A stretch of 32,000 nt of DNA from contig JBHIAT010000005.1 in assembly GCA_046758705.1 (NCBI GenBank), positions 18,009 to 50,008 of the forward strand, written 5' to 3'. The position numbers and the translations under genes are program-made. Positions 7,907 through 30,585 of this stretch are shown piece after piece; positions within the stretch are counted from its first letter, which is position 1, and each line of letters opens with the position of its first letter. Source of the stretch: Candidatus Bipolaricaulia bacterium (GTDB taxonomy: Bacteria > Bipolaricaulota > Bipolaricaulia > JBHIAT01). A model generated the notes under the pieces. The model made no database searches and was not told the DNA's origin. It saw nothing but the letters and a program-made list of their open reading frames with translations.

Positions 7907-7977
7907 TTACTCGTAAATATTGATCATGATGTAATTTGTACGGTAGCTAGGGTTCCTATTTTTCTGGAGGTACTGAC

Positions 7978-10344: not shown

Positions 10345-10362
10345 TAGAAGGAGGAGACAGTT

Positions 10363-13652: not shown

Positions 13653-14225
13653 ATGCCTGAAGAATCTTACACCCTGACCTATCAACAAGTTGCCGAGCTC
13701 CTCGGTAAATCTCGCCGAACGGTTCAACGCTATGTGGAGGAGGGGAAGCTCTCCAAGGACGAGGTAATGACCAAGACAGGCCAGCGGGTTTATTTTTCAG
13801 AAGCCGAAGTCAAAAAGCTCCAACAGGAGCTGCAGGAACCCCGCAGGGGTGACAGAGGGGGTGACACGTCATCCCAGCGCACACTGGCACTCCAGACGAT
13901 GGTAATGGGCCTTCAGAATCAGTTAGATAAGAAAGACGACCAGCTGGAGAAAAAAGAGGAAAAGATTGAGAAGCTGAATCGGGAGCTGGGAAGAATGGAA
14001 GGTCAGATGAAAGACCAGGGAAAGCTGGCTGAGGAACGAAGGCGGCTGGGGGAGAACCTAAAGAAAGAACAGGAAGAAAAGGTAGCTCTGGAGGGGGAAA
14101 TTGGCGGTCTCAGAAAAAGCCTGACTCGAGGACTGCTTACTGTAAACCTAATTTACATTATTGCTATCCTCGTCGCCGCCGCGATCCTCTTTTGGCCTCG
14201 GATTCAATCGCTTTTAACCCGCTAA
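13653..14225 (+). CDS. excisionase/MerR-like HTH + coiled coil + C-terminal TM helix protein
   Basis: 190 aa. The N-terminus LTYQQVAELLGKSRRTVQRYVEEGKL is a typical HTH. The centre is rich in E/K/L heptads. The C-terminus LLTVNLIYIIAILVAAAILFW is hydrophobic. Confidence 0.55.
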   Translation: MPEESYTLTYQQVAELLGKSRRTVQRYVEEGKLSKDEVMTKTGQRVYFSEAEVKKLQQELQEPRRGDRGGDTSSQRTLALQTMVMGLQNQLDKKDDQLEKKEEKIEKLNRELGRMEGQMKDQGKLAEERRRLGENLKKEQEEKVALEGEIGGLRKSLTRGLLTVNLIYIIAILVAAAILFWPRIQSLLTR

Positions 14226-15346: not shown

Positions 15347-16237
15347 ATGAACACCGAAAGTTATCATTTCAAGTTAGGCGAATTTGAATGCGTTTCTATC
15401 AGCGATGGCAGCTTCAATTATCCGATTGAAAGCTTTTTTGCCAACGCACCGAAGGAGCAACTTGAAGAGACCCTTCGCCAACACGACCTGCCATTAGAAC
15501 ATCTAACCACGCCGTACACCTGTCTGTTTGTCAGCACGGGCCAGCACCGGGTGATGATAGACACGGGTGCAGGAAATATAGGAGCAATCGCAGCCAAATT
15601 TTTCCCAAATGTGGACCATTCAACAACAATTACGGGCAATTTGCTCCAGAACATGGAAGCAGCGGGTATTAAGCTTGCGGACATTGATACAGTCATTATC
15701 ACGCACGCTCATCCAGATCATATTGGTGGCACACTTGATGATGGCAAGCTCGTTTTCGCCAACGCCCACTACTTTATCTCGAAAGACGAGTGGGATTTTT
15801 GGACTTCGGATATCGCTACAGCAAAAACTCCAGAACCCATGGTGAACATCGCGCGCAAAAATCTCGAACCCCTTCAAGATCGGCTGACCCTTATTGATAT
15901 TAATGATGAGTTTGAGACCGTGCCGGGCATCCAGGCTATTGCAACAGTCGGACACACGCCCGGTCATATCGCCTTGTCCATCGCCTCCGGTGGCGAGCAA
16001 TTGCTGCACATCTCCGATGCAGTGCTTTATCCGCTCCATCTGGAGCACCCGGAGTGGATCCCGGTCTTCGACATACTGCCTGAGGAAGCTGCCGCCAGCA
16101 AGCACCGAATCTTGGATCGGGCAGCACAGGGGAAGGCATTGGTGTTTGCCCATCACTTCCCTCCCTTCCCGAATCTGGGTCACGTTGTCAAGCAAGGGGA
16201 AGGATGGCAATGGCAACCGATTGAGACGAAGAGGTAA
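15347..16237 (+). CDS. MBL-fold metallo-hydrolase
   Basis: 296 aa. It has ITHAHPDHIGG (HxHxDH) and GHTPGH. AAAGGAGGA lies 7 nt upstream of the ATG. Confidence 0.85.
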   Translation: MNTESYHFKLGEFECVSISDGSFNYPIESFFANAPKEQLEETLRQHDLPLEHLTTPYTCLFVSTGQHRVMIDTGAGNIGAIAAKFFPNVDHSTTITGNLLQNMEAAGIKLADIDTVIITHAHPDHIGGTLDDGKLVFANAHYFISKDEWDFWTSDIATAKTPEPMVNIARKNLEPLQDRLTLIDINDEFETVPGIQAIATVGHTPGHIALSIASGGEQLLHISDAVLYPLHLEHPEWIPVFDILPEEAAASKHRILDRAAQGKALVFAHHFPPFPNLGHVVKQGEGWQWQPIETKR

Positions 16238-16526: not shown

Positions 16527-16555
16527 TTGACTGAATCCCGCTTCTGATCTATAAT
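16527..16555 (+). promoter_or_regulatory. sigma70-like promoter TTGACT-17 nt-TATAAT
   Basis: -35 at 16527-16532 and -10 at 16550-16555, 65 nt upstream of the ATG at 16621. Confidence 0.5.
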
Positions 16556-16620
16556 AGCATTGTTATTACCGGGAAGGGTTATTAGCGGCAATTAACTAAA
16601 TTGAATGGGGTGTAGTTAAT

Positions 16621-17232
16621 ATGAGCAAGGAGGACACTATTCTCAGTGAGATAACAAAATTCTACTTGGATTCCGGCGATTTTAATGGTCTTCCTATCCG
16701 TGAGATTATCCGAAACTTTGAATTAGAAGGAAAAGAACTCGAAAACGTTCTCGCTTCTTTAATTGAAGAAGATAAAATCTCTCTCAACCTTGGAGACCGT
16801 CACCCAAATCCTCACATCAAGGCGTTTGATGAAGAACCTGCGGAAACACAGATAAAAAAGCTGCAGAGTTTAAACCTAGAGGACGCCTGCGCTTATCCCA
16901 CAAGATCACACCTCCAAGAAGTGGTTGACGTATCTGAGTATCAAGATAGACTCTTTACACTAAGGCTAGCCTTAGGCGAACCGCAGCTATTGGGGAGATC
17001 AACCCCTATCGAGAACCTCGGGATTCACCGGATAGCGGGGCCGCTCCAGGCTCCCGGTCGCGAGCGAGGCCTGGGCAACCAGTCGATCGCTTCTACAACT
17101 CTTCCTCTGGCCCCGGCAGATCCGGGCAGGTTTTTCGGTACGACTCATCGCCCAAGAACTGCTGCCACTCCGCGCGGGTCAGGTTGCGATTGGCTATGCT
17201 GCAGGCACGGGCTTGCCAGGACTCAAGGCTGA
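16621..17232 (+). CDS. hypothetical protein, probably 3'-truncated or chimeric at the island junction near 16991
   Basis: The first ~123 aa are AT-rich and protein-like. From ~16992 the frame runs through the 55-bp direct repeat and then antisense to the WD40 gene tail, giving a Pro/Arg/Gly-rich read-through. Confidence 0.35.
   Translation: MSKEDTILSEITKFYLDSGDFNGLPIREIIRNFELEGKELENVLASLIEEDKISLNLGDRHPNPHIKAFDEEPAETQIKKLQSLNLEDACAYPTRSHLQEVVDVSEYQDRLFTLRLALGEPQLLGRSTPIENLGIHRIAGPLQAPGRERGLGNQSIASTTLPLAPADPGRFFGTTHRPRTAATPRGSGCDWLCCRHGLARTQG
16992..17046. repeat. 55-bp direct repeat, left copy
   Basis: GGGGAGATCAACCCCTATCGAGAACCTCGGGATTCACCGGATAGCGGGGCCGCTC. It is 53/55 identical to 29393-29447; the mismatches are at 17013 and 17014. 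On the minus strand it encodes ..ERPRYPVNPEVLDRG-stop. Confidence 0.9.
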
Positions 17233-19921
17233 CATCCCACAAGAGGATAGTACCATCGTCACTTCCCGACGCCAGTGTTTTACTATTTGGGCTGAAAGCC
17301 ACACTGTTTACGCTAGACTTGTGGCCAGTGAGGGGTGACCCGAGCGGCTGGCGTGCCACGACATCCAATAGGATTACTGCACCATCGGCATTCGCCATCG
17401 CCAACATTTGGCCGTCCGGCCTAAACGCTACACTTTTCACTCCCCGTTGATCTGTGAGCGGTGGGCCAAGCATCTGCTGCGTTGCCACATCCCACAGAAT
17501 GATAGCGTTTTCCTGACTGGTCTTGCCTAAACTGCTTGAAGCCAGCAGTTGGCTGTCCGGGCTGAACGCCAAGCTGGTCACCCGTGCGGTATGCCCAGTG
17601 AGAGGCTGGCCAAGCGGTTGACGAGAGGTGACATCCCATAGCCTGATGGTGTCATCCCAACTACCCGATGCCAACGTTTTTCCATCGGGGCTGAAGGTCA
17701 CGCTTGACACCTCGTCAGTGTGTCCGGTGAGGGGTGGACCAAGCGGTCGACGAGCGGCGACATCCCACAAGATGATAGTGCCGTCCTCATTACCTGACGC
17801 CAGCATTTTGGCATCCGGGCTAAAGGTCACGCTCACCACCCGGCTTTCGTGTCCGGTAAGGGGTTGGCCAATGGGTCGACCAGTCGCGACATCCCACAGG
17901 ATGATGGTGCCGTCCGAACTACCCGACGCCAGTATTTTTCCGTCCGAGCTGAAAGCCTCGTTCAGTATGTTTTCTTTGATGGAAGACTGGCTTACTGGTC
18001 GATGTTCCTCAACATGCCATAAGATGATGCTGTCGTCCCTTTCGCCTGAAGGTTTACGACCAAACGATACCAACGACTGGCCATCTGGAGTGAAAATCAC
18101 GTTTGATATCGGGTCGGCGTGTGTCGTAAGGGACCGAGCAAGTGGCTCAGGGTTGGCAAGATTCCACATGATAATGGTGCCGTCCCGATCGCTCGACGCC
18201 AACGTTTGGCCATCCGGACTGAAGGCCACGCTCAACACCTCGTTAGTGTGTCCGGTGAGAGGTTGGCCGAGCGGCTTAAGGGTAGTGGCATCCCAAAGGA
18301 TGAGGGTGTTGTCCCGGCTGGCCGAGGCCAACATTTGGCCGTTGGGGCTGAAGGCCACGCTGTTCACAAGATGCTTGTGTCCGGTAAGGGGCTGGCCAAT
18401 GGGTTGACCAGTGGTGACATCCCATAGCCTGATGGTGTCGTCTGAACTACCCGACACTAGCATTTGGCCGTCGGGGCTGAAGGCCACACTGGTCAGCCAA
18501 CTTGCATGACCGGTAAGGGGCTGGCCAATGGGTTGACCAGTGGTGACATCCCATAGCCTGATGGTGTCGTCCCAACTACCTGACGCTAACATTTGGCCAT
18601 CGGGGCTGAAGGCCACGCTCACCACCCAGCTCTCGTGTCCAGTAAGGGGCTCGCTGATGGGCTGACCAGTCGCGACATCCCACAGGATAATGGTGTCGTC
18701 CGAACTACCCGATGCTAGCATTTGGCCATCCGGGCTGAAGGTCACGCTGTGCACCCAACTATTGTGGTCAGTTAGAGGGGGGCCAAGAGGCTGGCGATCC
18801 GCAACATCCCATAGCCGAATTTCGCCTTGCTTGCATAATCCACCTTCGTGGTCAGCGCAACTGCCCGAGGCCAACATTTTTCCGTCTGGGCTAAAGGCAA
18901 CGCTGTATACCCAGTTAGTGTGTCTGGTGAGGGGCGGTCCGAGCGGCCGGTGGGTAGCGACATCCCACAGGATAATACTGTTATCCCAACTGCTTGAGGC
19001 CAGCGTCTTTCCATCTGGACTGAAACTCACACTCAACACCCCGGCAGTGTGGCTGTGCAGGAAAGCGCTTAGGCGAGGGTTGTGTTCCAGCCCGGTGAGT
19101 AGACTACTTCGAGCTTCCAAAGTCTTTTTAACCTGGTGAGCTTCCACACTTAATAACAAGGCCAGGTTCAACTGGGCATCCAAGTGAGTGAGGGCTTGCG
19201 CAGCCAATTGGCGGGAGAGGGCGATCTGGCGCCGCTCTTCGGCAATCTGGCGCTGATAGAAAGCCCACCCTGTCAAAAAGGCTAACGCTACCGCTACACT
19301 AATGGCAACTATTGTGAGTGTCCTTTGGCGCTTAGCGGTGGCCTTACGACTGGCGGTGATGTACTGGGTTTGAAGTGACGTGGGCTTAGGTTCTTTCTCT
19401 GCGGCTTGCGCTAGCCATTCCTCCGCATCTCGTAGATCACTCCCGCGCAGCACAAAGCTGTTGTCACGCTCGTTGCTATCCCACTCAATGGCACGCTCCA
19501 GCAAGCGCGTATGCGCACGCACCCAGTCCAGATCGGTATCGATGGCTTCGATCAAAGATTGGAGGGCGCCATCGAAATCGTCACTCTCACGAAAGAAAAT
19601 CCAGTTGAGTGCAGCCAGAGCTTGAGGCACGGCTTCGGCGTCAACATCACGACGCACGATGGGCGTGAGCCGTTTATGGTGCTCGACAGCGTGAGCAAGC
19701 TCTTGAGCACAGACCTCTGAGTCCACGGAATCCGGACTGATGACGAATACAAACGTGTCAGCCGCCTCAATGGCAGAATAAACCTCCTCCAGCCACTCCG
19801 CAGAGGGGGGAATATCCTCCCAGTCAACCCAGGAGTCTCGGTCACGTTCGCTGAGCGCTTCATGTAGATCACGTACGAAATCCTGATCTTGGCGCGAGTA
19901 GGAGATAAAAACGTCAGCCAT
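17093..19921 (-). CDS. TIR domain / helical linker / single TM helix / 14x WD40 protein (no NTPase)
   Basis: 942-aa intact ORF. N-terminal TIR pattern: DVFISYSRQD...FVFVISPDSVDSEVCAQEL. Hydrophobic helix LTIVAISVAVALAFLTGWAFY at nt 19256-19318. 14 WD40 units follow. GAGG lies 5 nt upstream of the ATG. Confidence 0.9.
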   Translation of the reverse strand: MADVFISYSRQDQDFVRDLHEALSERDRDSWVDWEDIPPSAEWLEEVYSAIEAADTFVFVISPDSVDSEVCAQELAHAVEHHKRLTPIVRRDVDAEAVPQALAALNWIFFRESDDFDGALQSLIEAIDTDLDWVRAHTRLLERAIEWDSNERDNSFVLRGSDLRDAEEWLAQAAEKEPKPTSLQTQYITASRKATAKRQRTLTIVAISVAVALAFLTGWAFYQRQIAEERRQIALSRQLAAQALTHLDAQLNLALLLSVEAHQVKKTLEARSSLLTGLEHNPRLSAFLHSHTAGVLSVSFSPDGKTLASSSWDNSIILWDVATHRPLGPPLTRHTNWVYSVAFSPDGKMLASGSCADHEGGLCKQGEIRLWDVADRQPLGPPLTDHNSWVHSVTFSPDGQMLASGSSDDTIILWDVATGQPISEPLTGHESWVVSVAFSPDGQMLASGSWDDTIRLWDVTTGQPIGQPLTGHASWLTSVAFSPDGQMLVSGSSDDTIRLWDVTTGQPIGQPLTGHKHLVNSVAFSPNGQMLASASRDNTLILWDATTLKPLGQPLTGHTNEVLSVAFSPDGQTLASSDRDGTIIMWNLANPEPLARSLTTHADPISNVIFTPDGQSLVSFGRKPSGERDDSIILWHVEEHRPVSQSSIKENILNEAFSSDGKILASGSSDGTIILWDVATGRPIGQPLTGHESRVVSVTFSPDAKMLASGNEDGTIILWDVAARRPLGPPLTGHTDEVSSVTFSPDGKTLASGSWDDTIRLWDVTSRQPLGQPLTGHTARVTSLAFSPDSQLLASSSLGKTSQENAIILWDVATQQMLGPPLTDQRGVKSVAFRPDGQMLAMANADGAVILLDVVARQPLGSPLTGHKSSVNSVAFSPNSKTLASGSDDGTILLWDVSLESWQARACSIANRNLTRAEWQQFLGDESYRKTCPDLPGPEEEL
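17231..19051 (-). repeat. in-frame WD40 repeat array, 14 units
   Basis: Units were counted in the translation, and the boundaries checked against nucleotides (His codon of unit 1 at 19049-19051). Confidence 0.85.
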
Positions 19922-19951
19922 GTCACCCTCTGGGACAGTACGACTTTTGCT

Positions 19952-20884
19952 TCAATTGGATCGCTGTTCGGTTAAAGTTGCGATGTCGAGCGCCAGACGG
20001 TCGAAAAAAGCGGATTCAGGTTGAGCAAGTATCGTCCGAGCGTTCAGGTCACGCAAAGGTACCGAGCCGATTCCAGGGTCAAGCACCTCCCAAGGCACAA
20101 CATCCGCCAGAAGTCCAGGCAGCAACAGCGGAAAGATGCCCCGTGGACCGTCGAGTTGAGCATACGACCCCAGTGCCCAGTGTACCTCCTGTATGACCGC
20201 TTCGCTGTTCAGCGAAGCATCACTCAACAGGACCACAAAGGCGTCGGCGATGCGCAGATTGTCCTGAACTGCTATACGCCAGTTTTCGCCTGCCCGCAAT
20301 GCTGTCAGATCGCGCCACACCGTCAGACCGCGTTCCTCCAGAGCTTTCTGAACTTTAGCTGCAAGCACCTCATCCTCACGCGCATAACTGATCAACACCC
20401 GACACCCATAGCGCAGTTTGCGTTCCATCCAGATCAGCTGCTCCACACTGCGCGCGTCAGGTTCCGGGAAACCACGCAGCCACCAGCCAATCTTGCTTGC
20501 AGATTGGATCGGCTTCTTGTTAGTGAATCGCAACTTCAGCAGTTCTGAGGTAAAGTCGCGCACGGTGGTGGACTTGAACGAGAAATGGTACGTGCCTTCG
20601 GCATTGGTAGCAATAACAGCGTATTTGCCATAATTCTTGTAAGGGATCTGATCCATCTGTTCTTTTGGCACAGCCATACAGCCGGCCAATTTATAAGCCA
20701 GCGTATAGATGCGCTGACCATTGCTGTTCACCACGCTGGTGACGATCCACAGCGTACCCCCACTGGCCAGTTTGTAGATCACCTTGCTCTTGCTGCGGTA
20801 GAAGTTAGCGCGGAACGCGGGATGCCCGCCGGGGCCACGTCGCAGAATATCCCAATTGACATAGGCCAGTGCATGTCGGCTCAT
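19952..20884 (-). CDS. unknown N-terminal domain (~165 aa) + C-terminal TIR domain protein
   Basis: 310 aa. C-terminal TIR pattern: RVLISYAREDEVLAAKVQKALEERGLTVWRD...AFVVLLSDASLNSEAVIQEV. I recognise no motif in the N-terminal half. Confidence 0.75.
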   Translation of the reverse strand: MSRHALAYVNWDILRRGPGGHPAFRANFYRSKSKVIYKLASGGTLWIVTSVVNSNGQRIYTLAYKLAGCMAVPKEQMDQIPYKNYGKYAVIATNAEGTYHFSFKSTTVRDFTSELLKLRFTNKKPIQSASKIGWWLRGFPEPDARSVEQLIWMERKLRYGCRVLISYAREDEVLAAKVQKALEERGLTVWRDLTALRAGENWRIAVQDNLRIADAFVVLLSDASLNSEAVIQEVHWALGSYAQLDGPRGIFPLLLPGLLADVVPWEVLDPGIGSVPLRDLNARTILAQPESAFFDRLALDIATLTEQRSN

Positions 20885-20899
20885 ATGGATTTATTCCCC

Positions 20900-22663
20900 T
20901 TAACCAGCCTTGTTTCTCATTTCACCTTCTCTTCTGTCTTCAGTTTGCTGGGCGTACAATTCGGCCAGCGCATTTTCCATCCGCTGCACCCAACCGGTAT
21001 GTTCACCCTTGAGAATCTTTTCTGTATGCTTGACCAGTTTGTCGACGTTTTTTGGATCTGCCTGTTCCTTAGGCAACAACGCCGTCCACCAGGCCTGCAC
21101 ATTGGCCAAGTCCGTCGCCACTTGGTTGTATTTCATCAGCGTGTTCTCGATCTGCTGGTATTCCAGGTATGTGATGAAAGCAGCCGCCAACGCCGTCGTC
21201 AGCGCGATCCACAGTTCTACCCCCAACGCAGCCAGCAAGGTGCCCACACCACCAGAGATGTAAATCAACCATTGTAAGCGCTTCAACTGCCGCTCCAGTT
21301 TAGTCGTTTTGAGCCGATAGAAATTGAGCTGGTCACCCAGTCGAATAGTGATGTAGCGATCGGGTGTGAGGAAGCTGAATCCGTCGTCGTCCGCCGCCGC
21401 GCCGTCCATCTTAGGTGGAATAGGATCCACGTACGGGCGCAAGGCCGATAGATTCACGTCGGTTTGCATTAACTGACGGCTGACGGACTCTACCTCGCGG
21501 GTCAGTTTGGCCTCTCGGGAAGTCTTCCCCATCTGCTGATCGTTGTAGATCCCGGCCTTGGCGCGATAGCGAAATATCTCTCGTTTGATCGCTTCGGCGC
21601 CGGCACGCAGCAACACCCACTTGTTGCCTGCTTTGAAGCGGTTGGCCGCCGCCACCAAAATAGAAACTGTGATCGGCACGATCACGATGACATAGTGAAG
21701 CACCTGACCCTGCCAAGAACGGTCATTCTGTATCCCCAACTCCCTTTGGCTCAATACCAGGAGTGTGCCGAGCACCCCCAGCGTCAGAATCCCCAGTTGC
21801 AGTCTGTTAAAGCTGATCTGCTGGCGTTTAGCGTTGTCGTCGTAGAGCGCAAAGCGCTCCCAGACCAGCCTGAGTGTTGTGTGCCTGCTCAACTGGCGAA
21901 TGATCATTCGTTCCAGCCCTGCGATCGGATCATCTAGCGAAAAGAGATGAAAATCACCATCGGCGATAATCTCGGCCATTACCGGGTCGTCGATAAAGGA
22001 AGGCTTTTCCTGACATAACGTGGCGATTTCGTCTGCCAGCCGTCTGCTGCCTTCGATAACAATGATGGGCCAGCCTCGCCGCACGCTACGCAACACCTCT
22101 TCCTTAGCAATGAGACCACCATTGACGAGCACTGTCACGGCAGGGACTCCTTTAGCCAACCCCTCTGCTAACTCATATAGTGTATCTGTTTCTCCGCCCC
22201 AGTCATTGCTTTCTACTAATACAAAATGGGAGTGGTTGGGATCGAGCGGCGCGCTGTCCTCAATGCTATCTTCGGCCGGTCCGCCAGGGTAAGTGACCTT
22301 GCCCGCAGGCGCCACGCCCAACAGAGTTGACCTTCGTCCCCGGTCGACAACGCCCTGGCCCATCATGGCCATCACCCCCACCTGCGTGCCGCCGTCAATG
22401 ATCAACGCGCCCGTGTCGGCGGCGGCGCGAGCGATGCCGCGACTGAACAACTGAACCAAGCGGGATTTCAGTTCCTCATCGAGACCTGCCGCACCACCGA
22501 CGATCATAAGCAGCGCTTTTGGTTGTTCAATGCCCAGTACGTGTAGGATGTTGGCGGCGCTTGTTTCAGCCGGTGGAGCCACCAGTTGCGCCCGATTGCC
22601 GTTAGGAAAAAGGATTTCCTTTTTGCTCTCGTCTTGATTTGCTTGTTGTGTGCCCACTAGCAA
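20900..22663 (-). CDS. SLOG (TRPM/LSDAT-like) domain + two SLATT-like 2TM modules; predicted nucleotide-gated membrane effector
   Basis: 587-aa ORF. SLOG-like Gly-rich motifs: MIVGGAAG, IIDGGTQVGVMAMMG, VLVNGG. Four hydrophobic helices: LGILTLGVLGTLLVL, VLHYVIVIVPITVSILVAAA, WLIYISGGVGTLLAALGV, LWIALTTALAAAFITYL. The likely true start is the GTG at 22657, which has GGAGG 6 nt upstream, rather than the TTG at 22663. Confidence 0.75.
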   Translation of the reverse strand: MLVGTQQANQDESKKEILFPNGNRAQLVAPPAETSAANILHVLGIEQPKALLMIVGGAAGLDEELKSRLVQLFSRGIARAAADTGALIIDGGTQVGVMAMMGQGVVDRGRRSTLLGVAPAGKVTYPGGPAEDSIEDSAPLDPNHSHFVLVESNDWGGETDTLYELAEGLAKGVPAVTVLVNGGLIAKEEVLRSVRRGWPIIVIEGSRRLADEIATLCQEKPSFIDDPVMAEIIADGDFHLFSLDDPIAGLERMIIRQLSRHTTLRLVWERFALYDDNAKRQQISFNRLQLGILTLGVLGTLLVLSQRELGIQNDRSWQGQVLHYVIVIVPITVSILVAAANRFKAGNKWVLLRAGAEAIKREIFRYRAKAGIYNDQQMGKTSREAKLTREVESVSRQLMQTDVNLSALRPYVDPIPPKMDGAAADDDGFSFLTPDRYITIRLGDQLNFYRLKTTKLERQLKRLQWLIYISGGVGTLLAALGVELWIALTTALAAAFITYLEYQQIENTLMKYNQVATDLANVQAWWTALLPKEQADPKNVDKLVKHTEKILKGEHTGWVQRMENALAELYAQQTEDRREGEMRNKAG

Positions 22664-22687
22664 CCTCCTGTTTTGAAACGCTCGGTT

Positions 22688-24961
22688 TCAAGGGTTGCGG
22701 TGTACATGATATGTTGGAAAGGTGCCATACCCTTTAGCCAACGGAGTTTGTCCGACGTAGTCGCACGTGAAGTCACTGATGCGCTCAGCTGCTGCCAAGG
22801 CCGCGAACGGTTGGCTAGCGTAGACATGACCCGGCGGCGTGATCGGCTCGATCCGGGCAGCCCAATTGACGTGCGAACCGGTGTAGCTGTGCTGTTCAAT
22901 GACTGGATCTTTGCAAGAGTACACAGGGCCAGCATGCAGCGCAATGCGAAGGTTCAGATCCTCGGGCAATCCTTTCTCCATCCAATCGGTGCTGCGCAGC
23001 CAGTCACTCAGTTCGAGGGCAAAATTGCCCGCCTGCTTGACAGAGGAGAAGACAAAATATAGAGCATCGCCCCAGGTGTTCTTCATTACCGGCTTATGGG
23101 GAGATGCAGCTACCAGATCGGAGACTGCTCCCATGAAGTGCGCCACGAAGCGTGGGATCTCTTCCTCAGTGAGCTTACTGTACCCCACTACGTCGGCGAA
23201 GAGCATCGCCATGATCTCTTGGGGAAAGCCAGGTGGAGTGGTTATCAGGTAGGGAACGGTTGGAGTCGCAGGTTTGCTGGTTACCGGGGCGGATTGGATG
23301 ACGATAGTCTTCTCTAGTAGAGTAGCAATATCCACCACCTCAGGTTCTCGATCCTGCGAGCGCCAGTGTTCCACCAGTGAAGTGGTGCCCCCTGGTCCAT
23401 CGCCAGGGCGGCCGTCCCACACGACCAGGGGGATCACCTCGGTATCCAGCATCTGTGCCCGTAGCGCTGCCAGGCCATCCTGCATGAGGTTGGAGTATTC
23501 GTAGGCAACCGCACTTCCTGAAGCGCGATGCTCGCTGGCAACCATAACGCGGGCGACCTGCTTCAACACGCGTCGGAAACGCCTCCCCCAATTGGCTCCA
23601 GGAATGATGTCCACACTGGCCGTCTGAAACTCATCCTTCGGAAATGGCAGTACAACATGGATCTCACCTTTTTGCCTTAGCATCGCTTCCAGGAAGAGGA
23701 TGTCGGAGCCGCAGGCTGCTGAGGCGTAGCCAATGCGTGCATCCAATTTCTTCAACCTAGCAGCGATCTCCTGACGGACCAGCTTTTCCAGTGATTGGGG
23801 AAAGCGCGGTCGAGGCCGGCCCGGTTGGTCAATCATATGGCCGGCAAAGACGACGATCCGGGGAATCCCAAAACAGCGGTCGAAACGATGTTTGTCACCA
23901 CCCAGGTACTCCATCAAGAGTCGGGCATTGTGCCGGGTAGAACCCAGGTCGGCGTAATTTCCTTGCCCCTGTTCTGCTGCTCGGATATATCGGGCTTCAG
24001 CCTCGATCCACTCACCTAAGATGATTGCCGCCTCCCCCAGCGATGCCTCAGCCCAGTAGTCATCCTGCTCCTGCAATTTTTCCAGACAGAGAACACGGAC
24101 TTTGCGGGCCAGCTCCTTGGCGTGCTCTTGTTGTCCCATCAGCAGGGCCGTGGTGGCCGCGTTGATCCCGGTGTAAATGGCATCGTCAACTTTGTTCCCT
24201 CTTACCGCCAGGCGGTACGCCTTGGAATAAATATCGTGTGCCTGACGCAATTGGGCTTCTCGTTCGGCAGGGTCCGTTGCCTGTTCCCGGAGATCTTTGT
24301 GAGTGCGAGCAAGGAGGCCGAGCGTCTCCCCATCGGTATGCCCCTCGTGGTGGAGTTGGGAGAGAATCTCATTGGCTCGTTCGATCGCTCCACTGCGGGC
24401 GAGCGCCAATCCCTTAAGTTGCCTCAGGCGCACGTTTTTGGGCCAGTGCTTCAAGCCCGTAGCGATAATGTCATAAGCCAACAAAGGTTCGCCCGCCTTC
24501 AGGATCCGGTTGCCCAGCACTTCGTAGAGCTCAGAGGAACCGGCCCAATGCCCCGATGATATCGGTGCCCAAATCGATAGGAGATCTGTCAGGTCCAATT
24601 TGTCAGGGCCCTTCAGTCGTTCCAGCGCTTCTGTAACGGCTTCATAAGAAGAGCCAGAAGCGGATGAAGATCTCCGAGACGGGCTCTCAATCCGATACCC
24701 CAGAGCAATGATCGTCTTCAACACTTCCATCGCTGTTATGCGATCGTATTCCTTCTCGGACTCGGAGAGCTGCGCGTAGGGCAACAGGTCGGGATGCTTC
24801 TTGTTCGCGTCATCCTGCTGAGGTCCATAGGTCCAGCCTGCGGCAATGCGCTGCTGAGCCCAGAGGTCATGGTTATTTTCGGCCAGCAACTCGGTGAGTT
24901 TGCGAAGTCCCTTGGGCAACTTCATGCCCGAGGTGTCAATCGGTTTAGGTTCGTAAGTCAT
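22688..24961 (-). CDS. RyR-like domain / TPR-like (DUF4071-like) region / SLOG/LOG-like Rossmannoid module / class III adenylate-guanylate-type nucleotide cyclase
   Basis: 757 aa. The RyR-like segment is LAENNHDLWAQQRIAAGWTYG...HPDLLPYAQLSESEKEYDR. A helical repeat region contains YTGINAATTALLMG. The Rossmannoid module reads IVVFAGHMID...GYASAACGSDILFLEAML..GEIHVVLPF. The cyclase motifs FADVVGYS, WGDALYFVF, LRIALHAGPV and GSHVNWAARIE are all intact. The ATG overlaps the upstream stop (ATGA). Confidence 0.8.
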   Translation of the reverse strand: MTYEPKPIDTSGMKLPKGLRKLTELLAENNHDLWAQQRIAAGWTYGPQQDDANKKHPDLLPYAQLSESEKEYDRITAMEVLKTIIALGYRIESPSRRSSSASGSSYEAVTEALERLKGPDKLDLTDLLSIWAPISSGHWAGSSELYEVLGNRILKAGEPLLAYDIIATGLKHWPKNVRLRQLKGLALARSGAIERANEILSQLHHEGHTDGETLGLLARTHKDLREQATDPAEREAQLRQAHDIYSKAYRLAVRGNKVDDAIYTGINAATTALLMGQQEHAKELARKVRVLCLEKLQEQDDYWAEASLGEAAIILGEWIEAEARYIRAAEQGQGNYADLGSTRHNARLLMEYLGGDKHRFDRCFGIPRIVVFAGHMIDQPGRPRPRFPQSLEKLVRQEIAARLKKLDARIGYASAACGSDILFLEAMLRQKGEIHVVLPFPKDEFQTASVDIIPGANWGRRFRRVLKQVARVMVASEHRASGSAVAYEYSNLMQDGLAALRAQMLDTEVIPLVVWDGRPGDGPGGTTSLVEHWRSQDREPEVVDIATLLEKTIVIQSAPVTSKPATPTVPYLITTPPGFPQEIMAMLFADVVGYSKLTEEEIPRFVAHFMGAVSDLVAASPHKPVMKNTWGDALYFVFSSVKQAGNFALELSDWLRSTDWMEKGLPEDLNLRIALHAGPVYSCKDPVIEQHSYTGSHVNWAARIEPITPPGHVYASQPFAALAAAERISDFTCDYVGQTPLAKGYGTFPTYHVHRNP

Positions 24962-27900
24962 GGTATTCCTCCTTCCTCTGGCTCTGGCAGATTCGGGCAG
25001 GTCTTGCGATACGGCTCATCGCCCAGATACTGCTGCCACTCGTCCAGTGTGAGATTGTGTGTCAGGCGGGAGCAGGCTTCGGCAATCAGGTCTTCCGGCT
25101 GCCACAGCCACACGCGGGCGGTGCCGTCCCAACTTGCTGAGGCCAGCCGGCGTCCGTCGGGGCTGAAGGCTACGGCGCTCACCGGGCCATCGTGGAACAT
25201 GCGGGCGACCTCGCGCCCAGTTTCTGCCTCCCACACGCGGGCGGTGCCGTCCACACTCCCTGTGGCTAGCTGGCGTCCGTCGGGGCTGAAGGTTACGGCA
25301 GACACCCTGCCATCGTGCATCATGCGGGCGAGCTCGCGGCCAGTCGTTGCCTCCCACACGCGGGCAGTGCCGTCCCAACTTGCTGAGGCCAGCCGGCGTC
25401 CGTCGGGGCTGAAGGCTACGGCAGACACCAGGTCATCGTGCATCATACGGGCGATCTGGCGGCCGGACTCCGCCTCCCACACGCGGGCGGTGCCGTCCCA
25501 GCTCGCCGAGGCTAGCCAGCGTCCGTCGGGGCTGAAGGTCACAGCCACCACCTGGCGTTCGCTTTCATGCATCATCTGGGCGACTTGGCGACCGGACTCC
25601 GCCTCCCACACGTGGGCGGTGCCGTCTCTGCTCGCTGAGGCGATCCACTGCCCGTCGGGGCTAAAGACCACGGCATTTACCCGGTCTTTGTGGGTCATGC
25701 GAGCGATCTCGCGGCTGGATTCTGTCTCCCACACACGGGCAGTGCCGTCATCGCTCGCCGAGGCCAACCAGCGTCCGTCGGGACTGAAGGCCACAGCATT
25801 CACCGGGTCTTCGTGGGGCATGCGGGCGATCTGGCGGCCGACCGTTGCCTCCCACACGTGGGCAGTATTATCATCGCCTCCCGAGGCCAGCCAGCGTCCG
25901 TCGGGGCTGAAGGCCACGGCATTCACCGGGTCTTCGTGGGGCATGCGGGCGATCTGGCGGCCGGCCGTTGCCTCCCACACACGGGCAGTGTTGTCATCGC
26001 CTCCCGAGGCCAGCCAGCGTCCGTCGGGGCTGAAGGCTATGACAGACACCCTACCTTCATGCATCGTGCGGACGACGTGGCGGCCGGCCGTTGCCTCCCA
26101 CACGCGGGCGGTGCGATCCTCGCTGGCTGAGGCGATCCACTGCCCGTCGGGGCTGAAGGTCACGGCGCTCACCAAGCCTTCATGCGTCATGCGGGCGATC
26201 TGGCGGCCGGTTTCCGTCTCCCACACACGGGCAGTACGATCCCCGCTGGCCGAGGCGATCCACTGCCCGTCGGGGCTGAAGGCTACGGCACTCACCGGGC
26301 CTTCGTGGGTCATGCGGGCGACCTGGCGGCCGGTTTCCGTCTCCCACACGCGGGTGGTGCCATCCTCGCTGGCCGAGGCGATCCACTGCCCGCCGGGGCT
26401 GAAGGCTACCTCCAACACTGGGCCATCGTGGGGCATGCGGGCGATCTGGCGGCCGGTTTCCGCCTCCCACACGCGGGCGGTGCCATCCTCGCTGGCCGAG
26501 GCGATCCACTGCCCGCTGGGGCTGAAGGTCACGGCATTGACATCACCATTGTGGGTCATGCGGGCAAGTTCACGCCCAGTTTCCGCCTCCCACACGCGGG
26601 CAGTGCCGTCCCTGCTTCCCGAGGCTAGCCAGCGTCCGTCGGGGCTGAAGACCACAGTCCTCACCGGGCCATCGTGGGGCATGCGGGCGATCTGGCGGCC
26701 GGTTTCCGCCTCCCACACCTGGGCAGTGTTGTCGTTGCTTCCCGAGGCCAGCCAGCGTCCGTCGGGGCTGAAGGTGACAGTTACCACCGGGCCATCGTGA
26801 GTCATGCGGGCGATCTCGTGGCCGGACTCCGCCTCCCACACGCGGACGGTGCCATCCCAGCTGGCTGAGGTTACCCAGTGACTGTCAGAGTTGAAGGCCA
26901 CGGCAGACACCCCGCCTTGGTGAGTCATGCGGGCGATCTGGCGGCCGGACTCCGCCTCCCACACGCGGGCGGTGCCGTCCACACTCCCTGTGGCTAGCTG
27001 GCTTCCGTCGGGGCTGAAGGCTACGGCAAACACCCAGCTTTCGTGCGCCATCTGGGCCACGGGACGCGAGAGCAGCGCTAGGCTGTGACGTAGGGCTTGG
27101 TCACCCTCCAACGTGGGAACGCGTCGCAGGGACTCCACGACCAAGAGCACGCTGCGCGGCAGCAAATCTGCTTGCTGGACCCGCACAAACTCGGCCTGAG
27201 CCGCCAACTGGCGTGCCAACTGTTCCTCGGCCACCTGACGCTGCTCTTCAGCGATCCGGCGCTGTTCTTCGGCGCGTCGCCATTGCAGGCCAGCTACCCC
27301 GCCCAAAATCAGAGCTGCCAGCAGACCTAGGGTAAGCCCTAAGATCACGCGCCGCCGTAGGCGTTCTCGCGCTGCCCGCTCCTGCTTCCGCAGGGCAAGG
27401 CTCTCCTGGGTATATCCTTGCTCATCCGGGTTTAGGTCGTCGGGCCGCTCGGTCAGCCAACGCTCAGCTTCGGCCAGCGAGGCACCGCGTAACAGGGCGC
27501 CCTCGTCGCGCTCAGTGCGCTCCCACTCGGTCAGGGCTGCTCGCAGCCGTTGCCTCCAGAGAAGAAACTCCCGGTCTTCGTCTAGCCAACTCTGCAACTG
27601 CTTCCATCCTCGGACGAGGGCTTCATGAACCACCTCGACCGTTTCCTTGCCAAAGACCTCGCGAGCGACCCCGACTTTCTCCTCCTCTGTGACACCATCC
27701 CGCCCTGTCACTAGCAGCCGGGCGTCAGCCAGGGTCTTGATCACCGACCGGGCCTCTTCGCCGAGCTCGACCAACGTGGCCCGCCTGCGGGTGTCTTCAC
27801 TCCCTTCTTCAGGCTGTGCTACACGGACCAGCCGGGTAAAGACGCGGCGAGTAGCCTTCCGCTGCTCTGGCGTGAATTTCGCAAATTCCGCCTCTGCCCG

Positions 27901-29193
27901 CTGGGCGATGGCCCCTGCTACCTCCCCGATGTCCTCGTAAGCAGCGTGGGTCAACATCCCGCCCTGTCGCTGCGCCCACAGTTCCGTCAGCGCAAACTCC
28001 AACAGAGGCAGGTTGCCTGGGTTATCTCCTACATCGTCAAGGATGCGGTCCACTAGCCCGGGCTCGAAGGTCAGCCCTACCTTTTGAGCAGGATCAACGA
28101 TGGCTCGTTCCAGTTCGTCTCGTTTCATAGAGCCCAGGTTGACCACGCCCCCCTCCAGGCGGTCGCTCAGATCTCGTGTTAAGGCGAGAGCGTTACCGTA
28201 GAAGTCAGCCCGCAGGGTGAGCAGAACGGACAGCGGTGCCCGCTCTAAAGCGTTCAGCAGAGCTGTCACAAAGGACTTGCGATCTGTTTTCGGCGTCAGG
28301 GTGAAGAGTTCCTCGAATTGATCCGCCACCAGCAACAGTCGGTCGGTGCCCTCGGATTTCTCCAGGAGGCGCTCGACGGCGTCCTCCAGGAGTGTCTCTC
28401 CGTTTGCTAGCCGCTTTCCCAACTTCCGAGCCTCTGTCAGGCGGTCCGTCTCGTTCAGGCTCGGCTCCAGGAGCGAGATGAGGGCCGCGGCCAGGCGGTG
28501 GAAGGGGCGATCTCCGGGAGTGAAGAGAACCGCATCCCAGGTCGCTGCTGGCGGGCGTTGACGACGCAGCAGAGGTAATAACCCCGCTTGCACGACGGAG
28601 GATTTGCCGCTGCCAGAGGGCCCGACGACCGCCACCAGATTTCGATTCAGCGTTGCCTTCAACAACCGTTTGGAAAATTCCTCCTGCCCGAAGAAGAAGG
28701 CAGCGTGCTCCTCACCAAAGGCCCGTAGACCCCGATAGGGACACAGGGCCACGCGCACTTCTTCCGGCCGGACTGCCTCCTTCCCCCGGACGGCTCGCAC
28801 CAGTGCATCCAACGCCTCGGAGTCGGTGAGGTCTTGGTGTAGATCCACCCAGGTGTTAAGGAACAGGAAACCGGAGGTGAGGTCGGCACCGGGGAGTAGG
28901 ACGGGGATGACAGGAAAAACGCGCCCGGCCTTCTCCTCCTGCACCTGGCGGTCTAGGGCGAACCCTATCTCCCGCTTTTGCCAGAGGCCTAGGTCATGGG
29001 GGCCGAGGAAGACAGCCACGGCGCGTGCGCTGCGCAGCGCTTCTTCCAGGGCCTGGGGCCAGGGCAGACCCGCCACCAGGTTCTCACGGTCCAAAAAGGT
29101 GGCAATCCCACGGGCTTCCAGAAGCTGCCGAACGGTCTGGATCGATTTGCGATCAGGACTGTGGTAACTCAGAAAGAGGTCATAAGTACTCAT
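24958..29193 (-). CDS. TIR / STAND P-loop NTPase (nSTAND-like) / single TM helix / 16x WD40 protein
   Basis: 1411-aa intact ORF. TIR pattern: YDLFLSYHSPD...AVAVFLGPHDLGLWQKREI. The linker CPYRGLRAFGEEHAAFFFGQE is followed by Walker A GPSGSGKSS (nt 28603-28623). Hydrophobic helix VILGLTLGLLAALILGGVAGL at nt 27286-27348. 16 WD40 units follow. Confidence 0.9.
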   Translation of the reverse strand: MSTYDLFLSYHSPDRKSIQTVRQLLEARGIATFLDRENLVAGLPWPQALEEALRSARAVAVFLGPHDLGLWQKREIGFALDRQVQEEKAGRVFPVIPVLLPGADLTSGFLFLNTWVDLHQDLTDSEALDALVRAVRGKEAVRPEEVRVALCPYRGLRAFGEEHAAFFFGQEEFSKRLLKATLNRNLVAVVGPSGSGKSSVVQAGLLPLLRRQRPPAATWDAVLFTPGDRPFHRLAAALISLLEPSLNETDRLTEARKLGKRLANGETLLEDAVERLLEKSEGTDRLLLVADQFEELFTLTPKTDRKSFVTALLNALERAPLSVLLTLRADFYGNALALTRDLSDRLEGGVVNLGSMKRDELERAIVDPAQKVGLTFEPGLVDRILDDVGDNPGNLPLLEFALTELWAQRQGGMLTHAAYEDIGEVAGAIAQRAEAEFAKFTPEQRKATRRVFTRLVRVAQPEEGSEDTRRRATLVELGEEARSVIKTLADARLLVTGRDGVTEEEKVGVAREVFGKETVEVVHEALVRGWKQLQSWLDEDREFLLWRQRLRAALTEWERTERDEGALLRGASLAEAERWLTERPDDLNPDEQGYTQESLALRKQERAARERLRRRVILGLTLGLLAALILGGVAGLQWRRAEEQRRIAEEQRQVAEEQLARQLAAQAEFVRVQQADLLPRSVLLVVESLRRVPTLEGDQALRHSLALLSRPVAQMAHESWVFAVAFSPDGSQLATGSVDGTARVWEAESGRQIARMTHQGGVSAVAFNSDSHWVTSASWDGTVRVWEAESGHEIARMTHDGPVVTVTFSPDGRWLASGSNDNTAQVWEAETGRQIARMPHDGPVRTVVFSPDGRWLASGSRDGTARVWEAETGRELARMTHNGDVNAVTFSPSGQWIASASEDGTARVWEAETGRQIARMPHDGPVLEVAFSPGGQWIASASEDGTTRVWETETGRQVARMTHEGPVSAVAFSPDGQWIASASGDRTARVWETETGRQIARMTHEGLVSAVTFSPDGQWIASASEDRTARVWEATAGRHVVRTMHEGRVSVIAFSPDGRWLASGGDDNTARVWEATAGRQIARMPHEDPVNAVAFSPDGRWLASGGDDNTAHVWEATVGRQIARMPHEDPVNAVAFSPDGRWLASASDDGTARVWETESSREIARMTHKDRVNAVVFSPDGQWIASASRDGTAHVWEAESGRQVAQMMHESERQVVAVTFSPDGRWLASASWDGTARVWEAESGRQIARMMHDDLVSAVAFSPDGRRLASASWDGTARVWEATTGRELARMMHDGRVSAVTFSPDGRQLATGSVDGTARVWEAETGREVARMFHDGPVSAVAFSPDGRRLASASWDGTARVWLWQPEDLIAEACSRLTHNLTLDEWQQYLGDEPYRKTCPNLPEPEEGGIP
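25102..27045 (-). repeat. in-frame tandem array of 16 WD40 units with a 123-bp (41-aa) period and high inter-unit nucleotide identity
   Basis: Unit consensus is HxxxVxAVAFSPDG(R/Q)W(L/I)ASxSxDGTARVWEAETGRQIARM. Unit 13 has a 2-aa insertion and unit 16 is 31 aa. The boundaries were verified (His codon at 27043-27045). Confidence 0.9.
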
Positions 29194-29260
29194 GACATTC
29201 CACTTTCGTCAAGGGCGGGAACTCTGACAGGTGGTTCTTTGGCATCACTAGGTTGAGATT

Positions 29261-29290
29261 ATAGTATCTCATAGGGTATCAGATCGTCAA
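29261..29290 (-). promoter_or_regulatory. possible operon promoter TTGACG-18 nt-TACTAT (minus strand)
   Basis: -35 is the reverse complement of 29285-29290 and -10 the reverse complement of 29261-29266, about 70 nt upstream of the ATG at 29193. Confidence 0.3.
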
Positions 29291-29392
29291 ACGGTATGTG
29301 GACGACGTAAGGCGTGATGCGTGTATTCATGTATGGTGGTTGCGGGTCATGGGAACTCCTTTACCCTTCGGGTGAAAAGCCGTCATTGTGGG

Positions 29393-29447
29393 GGGGAGAT
29401 CAACCCCTATCGAAGACCTCGGGATTCACCGGATAGCGGGGCCGCTC
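29393..29447. repeat. 55-bp direct repeat, right copy
   Basis: 53/55 identical to 16992-17046. It covers the last 15 codons + stop + 7 nt of the dehydrogenase remnant. Confidence 0.9.
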
Positions 29448-29547
29448 GCCGCGGAGCACCTCCACGATGCCCTCGGCGGCGTGGGTCGCCATCCGCATGA
29501 GCGCCTCGTGGGTATGGGAGGCCATGTGCGGGGTTATGCACAAGGGT
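29400..29547 (-). pseudogene. 3'-terminal remnant (~48 codons) of a D-isomer-specific 2-hydroxyacid dehydrogenase-like gene
   Basis: The minus-strand translation ..LCITPHMASHTHEALMRMATHAAEGIVEVLRGERPRYPVNPEVFDRG-stop matches the typical C-terminus of this family (TPH...T.ea...a..n....l.G.p..n.VN). Upstream of it the frame abuts the stop of the 29548 gene, and the rest of ORF 29400..29714 is antisense to that gene. Confidence 0.55.
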
Positions 29548-30585
29548 TTACCTCTGAAAATCTTTAAGCAAGGTGCTGTCAATGATACGCTCATTCGTTT
29601 GGAGGTTGAAAAGCTTGCCTTTAGTAGCGACAAGAAGCTTTTTGACATCCTCTCGCCGGATACCGAAGCCACGTCCATCCACACAAGCCACCACCTCAAA
29701 AGCCGAACCACCACTTCGCAGCCGCTGATCCCTGAGTTCTGCCAGATGCTGCACGCGAGTTACTTTATCTCGGGCCGTGCCGTCATCTTCAGCCAACTTA
29801 GCTTCAAGAACCACAGTTGGTCGAAACTGGTTAGGTACCAGGAAGTCAGGAGCTTGGTCCATATCCTCAAATCGTTCGGCAACACCAGCTTTATGGTAGG
29901 GAATGTGTCTGGAATCCAACATCTCCTTTACAGCGTTTTCTATGATATCTCCTACTTTTTCAGATACAGCATCTCGGTGTGTAGCAAAGGGACGACCTAG
30001 AAAACGTTCGTAAAGCAGCATTGCATAAGGAATACCTGCTTCAGCCAATTGCTTGATACCCTCAAGTCCCTCTCTTGTATCTGCCTTGTCAAGACGGTGG
30101 ATCACCCCCTCGCTCACAGCAGGCGCTCCTTGCTTAATAAGTTCCACTGCTGTACGGACAAGGGCTGCCACCTGTTGTTGTGTTTTCGAAGTGGTTCGAT
30201 CAAGAAGAGGCTGTCCCTCTCTGGAACGCTTATCGAGCCTACGAGCAGTAGATTGACCAATTTCTACACCGGTCGTCACGCCGGTTATGTAGGCAAATTC
30301 CGGGGGAGAAAAACCGAGCATTGTTCGGAGCACTACCAAGACTAACGGATCCTGATGGAGCACAGCCAGTACTGACTCTGTTGAGAAATCCTCAAAGTTC
30401 GCTGTCCCATTCTTCAGGGCCTCATAAGCCTGCTGAAAGCGAGGGAATTCAACAAATCCCCTTCCCTTCGGCATGACCATAAAGAAGGATTGCAGGTCGT
30501 TGATAAAGCTATCCACGTAGTAGTCGATGTTGGCTGTTAGTTCTTCAGTCGTGACTTCAAAGGGGTAACGTGGGATGCCCATCAA
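29548..30585 (-). CDS. putative type II restriction endonuclease (PD-(D/E)xK)
   Basis: 345 aa. It carries the motif APDFLVPNQFRPTVVLEAKL (PD...ExK). It has a 4-nt overlap with the upstream methyltransferase gene. Confidence 0.5.
   Translation of the reverse strand: MMGIPRYPFEVTTEELTANIDYYVDSFINDLQSFFMVMPKGRGFVEFPRFQQAYEALKNGTANFEDFSTESVLAVLHQDPLVLVVLRTMLGFSPPEFAYITGVTTGVEIGQSTARRLDKRSREGQPLLDRTTSKTQQQVAALVRTAVELIKQGAPAVSEGVIHRLDKADTREGLEGIKQLAEAGIPYAMLLYERFLGRPFATHRDAVSEKVGDIIENAVKEMLDSRHIPYHKAGVAERFEDMDQAPDFLVPNQFRPTVVLEAKLAEDDGTARDKVTRVQHLAELRDQRLRSGGSAFEVVACVDGRGFGIRREDVKKLLVATKGKLFNLQTNERIIDSTLLKDFQR

Follow-up and report, generated by a model that had tools for sequence, protein, structure and literature searches.

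In streptococci, integrase-less cis-mobilizable elements (CIMEs) are stacked at the 3' end of a gene, fda or a tRNA-Lys gene, with the most decayed unit in the most distal position (PMC7563491; Bellanger et al. 2011, cited there). Long target duplications of 46-423 bp, some of them overlapping the 3' ends of genes, surround restriction-modification (R-M) genes that have no mobility genes (PMC2853133), and this class was defined against an empty-site genome (Nobusato et al. 2000; Furuta et al. 2010; see PMC2853133). In Prochlorococcus, tycheposons form stacked integrations that are marked by partial tRNAs (bioRxiv 10.1101/2020.12.28.424599). Here, we describe a locus in a stretch of 32,000 nucleotides, referred to as the window (GenBank assembly GCA_046758705.1, contig JBHIAT010000005.1, positions 18,009 to 50,008), from a metagenome-assembled genome (MAG) labelled Candidatus Bipolaricaulia. 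In this window a five-gene operon fills a 12.4-kb interval between two direct 55-bp repeats, both of them copies of the tail of a gene for a 2-hydroxyacid dehydrogenase. A third copy of this gene end is found on the far side of an adjacent R-M pair. All positions are those of the window, and the features are listed in Table 1.

Related designs are known from other elements. The elements e14 and phage 21 integrate within the 3' end of icd, a dehydrogenase gene of E. coli; they supply a slightly different 3' end, and the displaced original end remains at the far junction as a pseudo-fragment. In complex class 1 integrons that carry ISCR1 and a partial second 3'-conserved segment, integration of circular units through a shared segment produces duplications of which one boundary is fixed and the other variable. 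In arrays of Xer-dependent integrative mobile elements (IMEX) at dif, elements that have no recombinase follow one another in tandem, with a copy of a short site between neighbours.

The repeats are copies of the end of a dehydrogenase gene

The two copies inside the window (tail copies 1 and 2) are identical at 53 of 55 positions without gaps. They are in direct orientation and 12,401 bp apart from start to start, as predicted originally and as found here both by alignment and by a repeat search. The two mismatches are adjacent (GAGAAC in one copy, GAAGAC in the other), the longest uninterrupted identity is 32 nt, and the identity ends abruptly on both sides. As a search pattern we used a wobble-degenerate 32-mer encoding ERPRYPVNPEV from the dehydrogenase tail. 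It matches exactly these two sites in the window, where 0.00 matches are expected from 100 shuffles. No third copy, even a degenerate one, is present inside the window, and the next best ungapped match covers 29 of the 55 positions. Chance is excluded as the source of the repeat pair.

Translated from the minus strand, the right copy (ERPRYPVNPEVFDRG-stop) forms the in-frame end of a 47-codon remnant (ITPHMAS...VLRG). This remnant matches the C-terminal end of the 2-Hacid_dh family in Pfam and of glyoxylate reductase, GhrB and PGDH in NCBIfam, and the predicted assignment of the right copy to the end of a dehydrogenase therefore stands. The left copy encodes ERPRYPVNPEVLDRG-stop, and the sequence upstream of it is unrelated to the dehydrogenase, i.e., it is the orphan that it had been taken for.

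Two other parts of the original prediction do not hold in the form given. The right copy had been seen as a reconstituted 3' end beside the gene body, but the tail belongs to a remnant of 47 codons, the upstream end of which is no more than about 8 bp away from the stop codon of a XamI-family restriction endonuclease (R). As the dehydrogenase remnant is fused to the stop codon of the R-M pair, the right copy is itself a displaced copy. Nor does the left copy border on an ancestral flank: the DNA outside it consists of the first 123 codons of a gene for a protein of about 420 aa, cut at the edge of the repeat.

In the sequence covered here, the window and the Logan contigs, the copies are seen only in series at one locus, their origin is coding and a fold signal is absent. 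Dispersed repeats of the repetitive extragenic palindrome (REP) or miniature inverted-repeat transposable element (MITE) type would be non-coding in origin, scattered over unrelated loci in many copies and folded into a stable hairpin. No tRNA or known RNA was found at the locus that could be the true target. In the literature searched, no report of a 2-hydroxyacid dehydrogenase gene as a chromosomal attachment site (attB) was found. An attC-like or other structure in the 55-mer was also considered and rejected, its folding being no better than that of shuffled sequences.

A third tail and a common breakpoint

A third dehydrogenase tail lies upstream of the start codon of the DNA methyltransferase (M), just outside the window, in Logan short-read contigs from two independent runs. 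The contigs with the R-M pair reach 199 bp past the window and begin with ATCCGGTGAATCCCGAGGTTCTCGATAGGGAATGATCTCCC in both runs; they start at this tail because a k=31 assembly breaks in the repeat. Tail 3 matches tail 1 at 39 of 41 nt and has the same orientation. The layout of the locus is thus tail 3, R-M pair, tail 2, operon, tail 1 and an AT-rich block. As in an accretion array, more than two copies stand in series between different elements, and they are direct repeats from the 3' end of the target gene. The presence of tail 3 in this series suggests that the site has been used repeatedly.

All three tails diverge into unrelated DNA after GATCTCCC(C), 7-8 nt past the TGA. The end that they have in common is a GGGG-N7-CCCC palindrome with the stop codon inside it. 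In sense orientation, the sequence common to them is …CGATAGGG(G/A)(T/A)TGATCTCCC(C). Beyond the point of divergence we find the truncated gene at tail 1, the operon leader at tail 2 and the methyltransferase leader at tail 3. The inner ends of the tails are unequal, as tail 1 starts at -48 nt before the stop codon and tail 2 at -141 nt.

The truncated gene at tail 1 belongs to a family of 462 representatives, typically 405-445 aa long and without a Pfam domain. Its alignment to a 420-aa member ends at nt 16989, 2 bases from the repeat. Since the edge of tail 1 lies within 2 nt of the point where the homology of a truncated gene ends, it is a true breakpoint and not a decay of intergenic similarity. 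The three junctions fall at one point, as is expected of a single crossover position, and one of them truncates a gene. The tails also differ at two variable sites, with the alleles L/GT, F/GT and L/AA. These alleles fit a site-specific and a homologous model alike, and the crossover is not located by them.

Support from independent contigs

The Logan contigs follow the order of the window and are 99.7-100% identical to it. No alternative junctions were found in the contigs of the same samples; the recovered contigs are collinear and stop at the repeats. The fusion of the dehydrogenase fragment to the R stop codon is confirmed by contigs from two runs. In two runs the k=31 contigs end at 29463, 45 nt short of the first k-mer that they have in common with tail 1. 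Therefore, some other dehydrogenase-like sequence in the samples shares the 30-mer 29463-29492, and the resident dehydrogenase gene is the obvious candidate.

Contigs of two runs also stop at 16562, just past the -10 box of a promoter-like site; the 30-mer at this stop is that at about 16533-16562. This site, TTGACT-17-TATAAT, is near consensus and lies upstream of the 123-codon fragment, in the region 16527-16989. When the contigs of three sequencing runs are compared with the window, 0-8 substitutions per 2.4-6.6 kb are seen, and these differences indicate closely related strain variants in the samples.

It is very improbable that the repeats are an artefact, either of a chimeric metagenome assembly joined through the shared 32-mer or of a chance match. 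Such an origin would agree with the taxonomic label of the MAG, which conflicts with the gene content, and with the composition, which shifts exactly at the repeats; confirmation of the joins is not to be had from the independent contigs, as assembly with k=31 ends at the repeats. Chance, however, is excluded by the shuffles, and a repeat of 55 bp, in which no more than 32 bases in a row agree, falls below the length of a read and below the final k of the usual assemblers. Even if a wrong join had been made at the 32-mer, the partial tails would stay fused to the end of the operon (17046/17047) and to the R stop codon.

The doubt about the label comes from the backbone at the left end of the window (1-3075). 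The best 80 genome matches of its F420-type LLM oxidoreductase are mainly from Chloroflexota (Anaerolineae, Caldilineaceae); therefore the label Candidatus Bipolaricaulia, or the binning, looks doubtful. The same oxidoreductase was used to look for synteny. The 80 loci obtained reach no more than 61% identity, have none of the neighbours in common and are without a dehydrogenase.

A model of serial insertion

We suggest that the 3' end of the dehydrogenase gene could be a repeatedly used insertion site, into which cargo units were inserted serially, each with a partial tail; we give this an even chance of being right. With the same confidence we propose that the 12.4-kb operon may be one cassette of an accretion array, the 55-bp repeats being recombination scars. 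The discrete cassette of the original prediction is kept in this proposal, as dehydrogenase-tail repeats bracket a recombinase-free operon and a third tail follows, but its picture of a reconstituted gene was wrong in detail.

Along the sense of the dehydrogenase gene, i.e., from right to left in the window, the stack would consist of three units, each with a partial dehydrogenase tail followed by its own cargo. Unit 1 would be tail 3 with the R-M pair (a 160-bp leader, M and R). Unit 2 would comprise a 141-nt dehydrogenase fragment with tail 2, the 199-bp leader, the five-gene operon and the 46-bp spacer, while unit 3 would be the 48-nt tail 1 with the AT-rich block, the truncated gene coming first, after which the backbone begins.

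In the proposed mechanism, a circular molecule would form that contains the cargo and a partial dehydrogenase tail. The circle would then be integrated through one crossover in the resident gene's tail, and the shared segment would be duplicated. Each integration would leave a tail copy at the gene and shift the previous tail together with the older cargo outward, and the newest unit would be the one nearest the gene. The fusion between the dehydrogenase fragment and the R stop codon could represent the circle junction of the R-M unit, which would account for the extra dehydrogenase sequence at tail 2. Similarly, the abrupt start of tail 1 after the 46-bp spacer could represent the circle junction of the operon unit. 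Strand exchange may take place at the GGGG-N7-CCCC palindrome, with the enzyme supplied in trans.

A fixed exchange site at the palindrome is favoured because three independent junctions share one nucleotide, and one of them cuts a gene. For the recombination chemistry, site-specific exchange at the palindrome is accordingly the option we favour over homologous exchange. What we infer in this model is that circles were the intermediates, in which order the units arrived, that the chemistry was site-specific, which enzyme acted, and that an intact dehydrogenase gene follows tail 3.

The R-M pair gives independent information on one of the units. Relatives with 82% nucleotide identity have three unrelated sets of neighbours: a B12-binding gene together with an integrase, an IS4 transposase, and a lipoate/2-oxoacid dehydrogenase cluster in which the pair is embedded. 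At the protein level, XamI-family pairs of 69-82% identity occur in at least three unrelated genomic contexts. In two of the 82% relatives, the DNA similarity begins and ends at the two ORFs. Judged from these contexts, the R-M pair is demonstrably mobile. We also considered that the dehydrogenase fragment is a conserved part of the R-M element; this was rejected, as the 82% relatives share the two ORFs only and have no flanking repeats.

The same architecture could arise without a dedicated recombinase, through a RecA-type (Campbell) crossover in the dehydrogenase stretch or through an insertion in which a long stretch of the target is duplicated. The repeats would then be target duplications, and their common outer edge a fragile or preferred point after the gene. 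We consider this possible but tentative. Neither cassette holds a recombinase, and the R-M unit, like the relatives, has been cut back precisely to its ORFs. The duplicated lengths are long and variable (55 bp and at least 148 bp), which is typical of long target duplication and atypical of a fixed att core. In addition, the contig stops at 29463 imply a shared 30-mer, as expected if tail 2 duplicates a resident gene. On the other hand, homology-driven exchange does not predict three junctions at one nucleotide, with one of them inside a truncated gene, and the 32 nt of uninterrupted identity in tail 1 are a poor substrate for RecA. Moreover, the R-M relatives examined have no flanking duplications.

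Base composition and a recombinase in the AT-rich block

The interval between the repeats has a G+C content of 0.59, similar to the backbone (0.59-0.60), compared with 0.47 in the left flank and 0.49 in the right flank. The module thus resembles the backbone and not its AT-rich flanks, in agreement with the prediction. At third codon positions (GC3) the operon has 0.61-0.74, the R-M pair 0.46-0.53, the backbone 0.70-0.77 and the dehydrogenase remnant 0.85. In the AT-rich block, which spans 7.1-17.0 kb to the left of tail 1, most genes have a GC3 of 0.38-0.58 (EamA 0.67). The cargo blocks are unlike each other and unlike the backbone in composition.

These values bear on an alternative in which the operon is resident and the AT-rich blocks (7.1-17.0 kb and the R-M pair) have invaded, the extra tails being by-products of insertion, deletion or unequal exchange in an island prone to rearrangement. 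Here, the equal G+C of operon and backbone would be natural, and so would the paralogy (70-80% at the nucleotide level) between the WD40/STAND genes of the operon and the gene at 3468-6812 on the backbone side. The AT-rich block also carries signs of mobile DNA, namely the recombinase, the excisionase-like gene, a fragment of an IS5-type transposase and the truncated gene. We nevertheless find the alternative unlikely. Tail 1 lies 12.4 kb from the next copy, beyond the operon, and requires a duplication that brackets the operon. Four operon genes have a GC3 of 0.61-0.64, under the range of the backbone, and the left end of the AT-rich block is without a tail copy.

Serial insertion, in the form that we favour, needs an enzyme from elsewhere. 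The predicted lack of a recombinase is true between the repeats, where none of the five ORFs shows a recombinase or transposase domain, but it does not extend to the surroundings, as a tyrosine recombinase and an excisionase-family helix-turn-helix (HTH) protein lie 3-7 kb to the left. The recombinase is 6.6 kb and the HTH protein 2.8 kb from tail 1; in an accretion array, the cognate integrase normally adjoins an att site. No relatives of the recombinase were found in viral contigs, and its score against the integron integrase model is 68 bits, compared with a cutoff of 265 bits. The cargo units differ from integron gene cassettes both in this score, far below the integrase cutoff, and in the lack of an attC-like fold in the 55-mer. 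It is nevertheless tempting to go one step further, although we regard this step as quite unlikely to be correct. In a Chloroflexota-type bacterium, an integron-like platform for capture might use the palindrome across the stop codon as its docking site. The minimal 191-aa recombinase would act in trans to insert, stack and possibly shuffle recombinase-less defence cassettes, each with a partial tail as its recombination site.

Observations that weigh against serial insertion

Several observations speak against serial insertion at a fixed site. No tail-like site was found near the tyrosine recombinase, 6.6 kb away from the nearest tail, or near the HTH protein. No fourth copy of the tail or of its core was found in the window, neither closing the AT-rich block on the left nor near the recombinase. 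The 55-mer folds no better than shuffled sequences on either strand (z -0.23 to +0.39), and on the cargo side of the three junctions no conserved half-site is visible beyond the CCCC. As the R-M relatives are without the dehydrogenase fragment, a dehydrogenase-bearing attachment site (attP) is not conserved in that element.

The searches for relatives point in the same direction. The dehydrogenase-tail pattern gave 0 matches in collections of genomes, metagenomes and viral contigs, and no empty site, circular junction or second genome with any of the junctions was found in the searched collections. A protein search with the remnant returned only the 47-aa remnant itself, on a 50,212-bp contig of an NCBI MAG, and the body of the gene after tail 3 was not seen. 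Finally, the junctions 16991/2, 17046/7 and 29392/3 are present in the MAG assembly alone, as the k=31 contigs break in the repeat.

Genes of the locus

Table 1. Features of the dehydrogenase-tail array and its surroundings, in window coordinates.
Feature	Position	Strand	Description
Tyrosine recombinase, 191 aa	9769..10344	+	Catalytic domain only; candidate trans-acting enzyme
Excisionase-family HTH protein	13653..14225	+	Coiled coil and C-terminal hydrophobic segment; candidate directionality factor
5' fragment of a gene of a ~420-aa family	16621..16989	+	123 codons; homology stops at ...LALGEPQL, at the edge of tail copy 1
Palindrome GGGG-AGATCAA-CCCC (GGGG-N7-CCCC)	16992..17006		Spans the dehydrogenase stop codon; outer edge of tail copy 1; recurrent breakpoint
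Tail copy 1	16992..17046	-	Last 15 codons (ERPRYPVNPEVLDRG), stop and 7 nt of the 2-hydroxyacid dehydrogenase gene, without gene body
Spacer, 46 bp	17047..17092	-	G+C 0.70; separates tail copy 1 from the stop codon of TIR-WD40 and closes the cargo block distally
TIR-WD40 protein, 942 aa	17093..19921	-	Operon gene
TIR_2 domain protein, 310 aa	19952..20884	-	Operon gene
SLOG (LSDAT_prok) - DUF4231/SLATT membrane effector, 587 aa	20900..22663	-	Operon gene
RyR - TPR-S - class III nucleotide cyclase, 757 aa	22688..24961	-	Start overlaps the upstream gene by 4 nt
TIR - nSTAND1 NTPase - WD40 protein, 1411 aa	24958..29193	-	First gene of the operon
Leader, 199 bp	29194..29392	-	G+C 0.49; separates the operon from tail copy 2; contains a weak sigma-70-like site (29290-29261)
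Tail copy 2	29393..29447	-	Last 15 codons (ERPRYPVNPEVFDRG), stop and 7 nt of the dehydrogenase gene
Dehydrogenase fragment continuing tail copy 2	29448..29546	-	99 bp coding, ITPHMAS...VLRG; G+C 0.70; locus tag of the remnant ACE5JP_01360
XamI-family restriction endonuclease, 344 aa	29548..30582	-	R of the R-M pair; locus tag ACE5JP_01365
Type II DNA methyltransferase, 472 aa	30582..32000	-	Start codon at the last base of the window
Tail copy 3 (…YPVNPEVLDRE-stop, ATCCGGTGAATCCCGAGGTTCTCGATAGGGAATGATCTCCC)	equivalent to 32159-32199, outside the window	-	159-199 bp upstream of the methyltransferase start codon

The five genes between the repeats are all co-oriented. The operon has no terminal inverted repeats, the inverted similarity of its ends scoring 8 against a mean of 9.9 for shuffled sequences. 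It is unlike a transposon or insertion sequence (IS), as it is without inverted repeats and without a transposase and its duplication is 55 bp long. The family of the RyR-TPR-S-cyclase protein is large, with more than 1900 matches, and its gene partners vary. The nearest homologues of the cyclase (68%) are on contigs of at most 5 kb, too short for the flanks to be seen, and homologues of 65% and 57% on long contigs have other neighbours and no dehydrogenase tail. No close relative of the cyclase protein was found in the JGI metagenomes.

Three large WD40 proteins in the window (3468-6812, 17093-19921 and 24958-29193) end in one conserved tail of about 40 aa, ESWQ..AC.IANRNLT..EW.Q(Y/F)LGD..YRKTCP.LP.PE. 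The shared tails, at 3470-3555, 17101-17186 and 24972-25057, are about 80% identical at the nucleotide level. All three proteins also contain arrays of 129-nt or 123-nt repeats. The first of them, a trypsin-like protease - nSTAND1 - WD40 protein, is overlapped by the gene of a Trypco1 protein (6805-7134). This is a second conflict-type gene pair, located on the backbone side of the AT-rich block.

At its left edge this block has an 843-bp AT-rich stretch (7135-7977) that contains no ORF and matches neither a tRNA nor Rfam; it separates the G+C-rich backbone from the gene of the EamA transporter. Further to the right, the region 9056-11349 resembles a three-gene unit, consisting of a 238-aa protein without a family match, the 191-aa recombinase and a 328-aa protein. 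The recombinase has no N-terminal DNA-binding domain and its gene overlaps the upstream gene by 4 nt, and the C-terminus of the 328-aa protein matches the PADLOC candidate PDC-S69 and a PD-(D/E)XK model. At 14780-15202 there is a 140-aa fragment of an IS5-type DDE transposase (DDE_Tnp_1_5) with no complete element around it. It is followed by a metallo-beta-lactamase (MBL)-fold hydrolase (15347-16237), which has a weak precomputed match to the anti-Pycsar Apyc1 family. This hydrolase is located about 1 kb from the operon, which is built around a nucleotide cyclase.

Comparison with known systems

As in the CIME arrays of streptococci, the blocks of this locus have no integrase, are bounded by direct repeats taken from a target gene's 3' end and are stacked in tandem. 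The most decayed unit is farthest from the gene in both, and mobilisation by the recombinase of a neighbouring element, as in those arrays, is what we propose here. However, conjugation genes of integrative and conjugative or integrative and mobilizable elements (ICE/IME) are absent here, no integrase adjoins any tail, and the tails retained are of unequal length (48 and 141 nt before the stop codon). The target gene and the host lineage (Chloroflexota-like) are also new, and the array is known from its sequence alone.

The likeness to long target duplications lies in a small block without mobility genes, flanked by direct repeats of more than 30 bp that overlap the 3' end of a neighbouring gene, and one block here is an R-M pair trimmed to its ORFs. 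The class as delimited by Furuta et al. comprises inserts below 20 kb with repeats above 30 bp and no mobility genes. The operon (12.3 kb, 55-bp repeats) has these properties, and so has the R-M unit of about 2.6 kb, with at least 41 nt of repeat visible and up to 148 nt possible. Genes for both R and M within the insert, which also belong to the definition, are absent from the operon and present in the unit at 29548-32000. In contrast to the described cases, there are two successive events with one breakpoint, and the larger block is a TIR/STAND/cyclase operon and not an R-M pair. The class itself rests on comparison with an empty-site genome, and the locus here is known without such a genome.

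The stacks of tycheposons are similar in that older elements are pushed outward, partial copies of the target lie between the blocks, and the cargo is adaptive or defensive. Their target is a tRNA gene, whereas here it is a protein-coding gene. Intact tycheposons encode their own tyrosine recombinase, with activity shown by PCR, whereas neither cassette at the present locus encodes a recombinase.

The elements e14 and phage 21 differ more in kind, being prophage-type, with their own integrase beside the att site and a single insertion instead of a cargo-only stack. Unlike the ISCR1 integrons and the IMEX arrays, the locus has no ISCR/IS91 transposase, no integron integrase and no attC-like folding, and in contrast to IMEX the repeated site is the tail of a gene and not dif.

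Implications

New features of this locus are the gene used as target, the lineage of the host and the cargo, in which a TIR/STAND/cyclase/SLATT operon stands beside an R-M pair; the principle is not new. Accretion arrays, cis-mobilizable elements and long target duplications have already been described. If serial insertion is correct, the exact cassette boundaries of the five-gene operon would be useful for its cloning and testing. The signature of the process would be a series of partial gene tails together with one shared breakpoint, and it could serve to delimit cargo cassettes in MAGs of poorly studied phyla that lack integrase or tRNA landmarks. The locus itself would then show the building of a defence island, in which unrelated immune modules were added serially at the end of a housekeeping gene.

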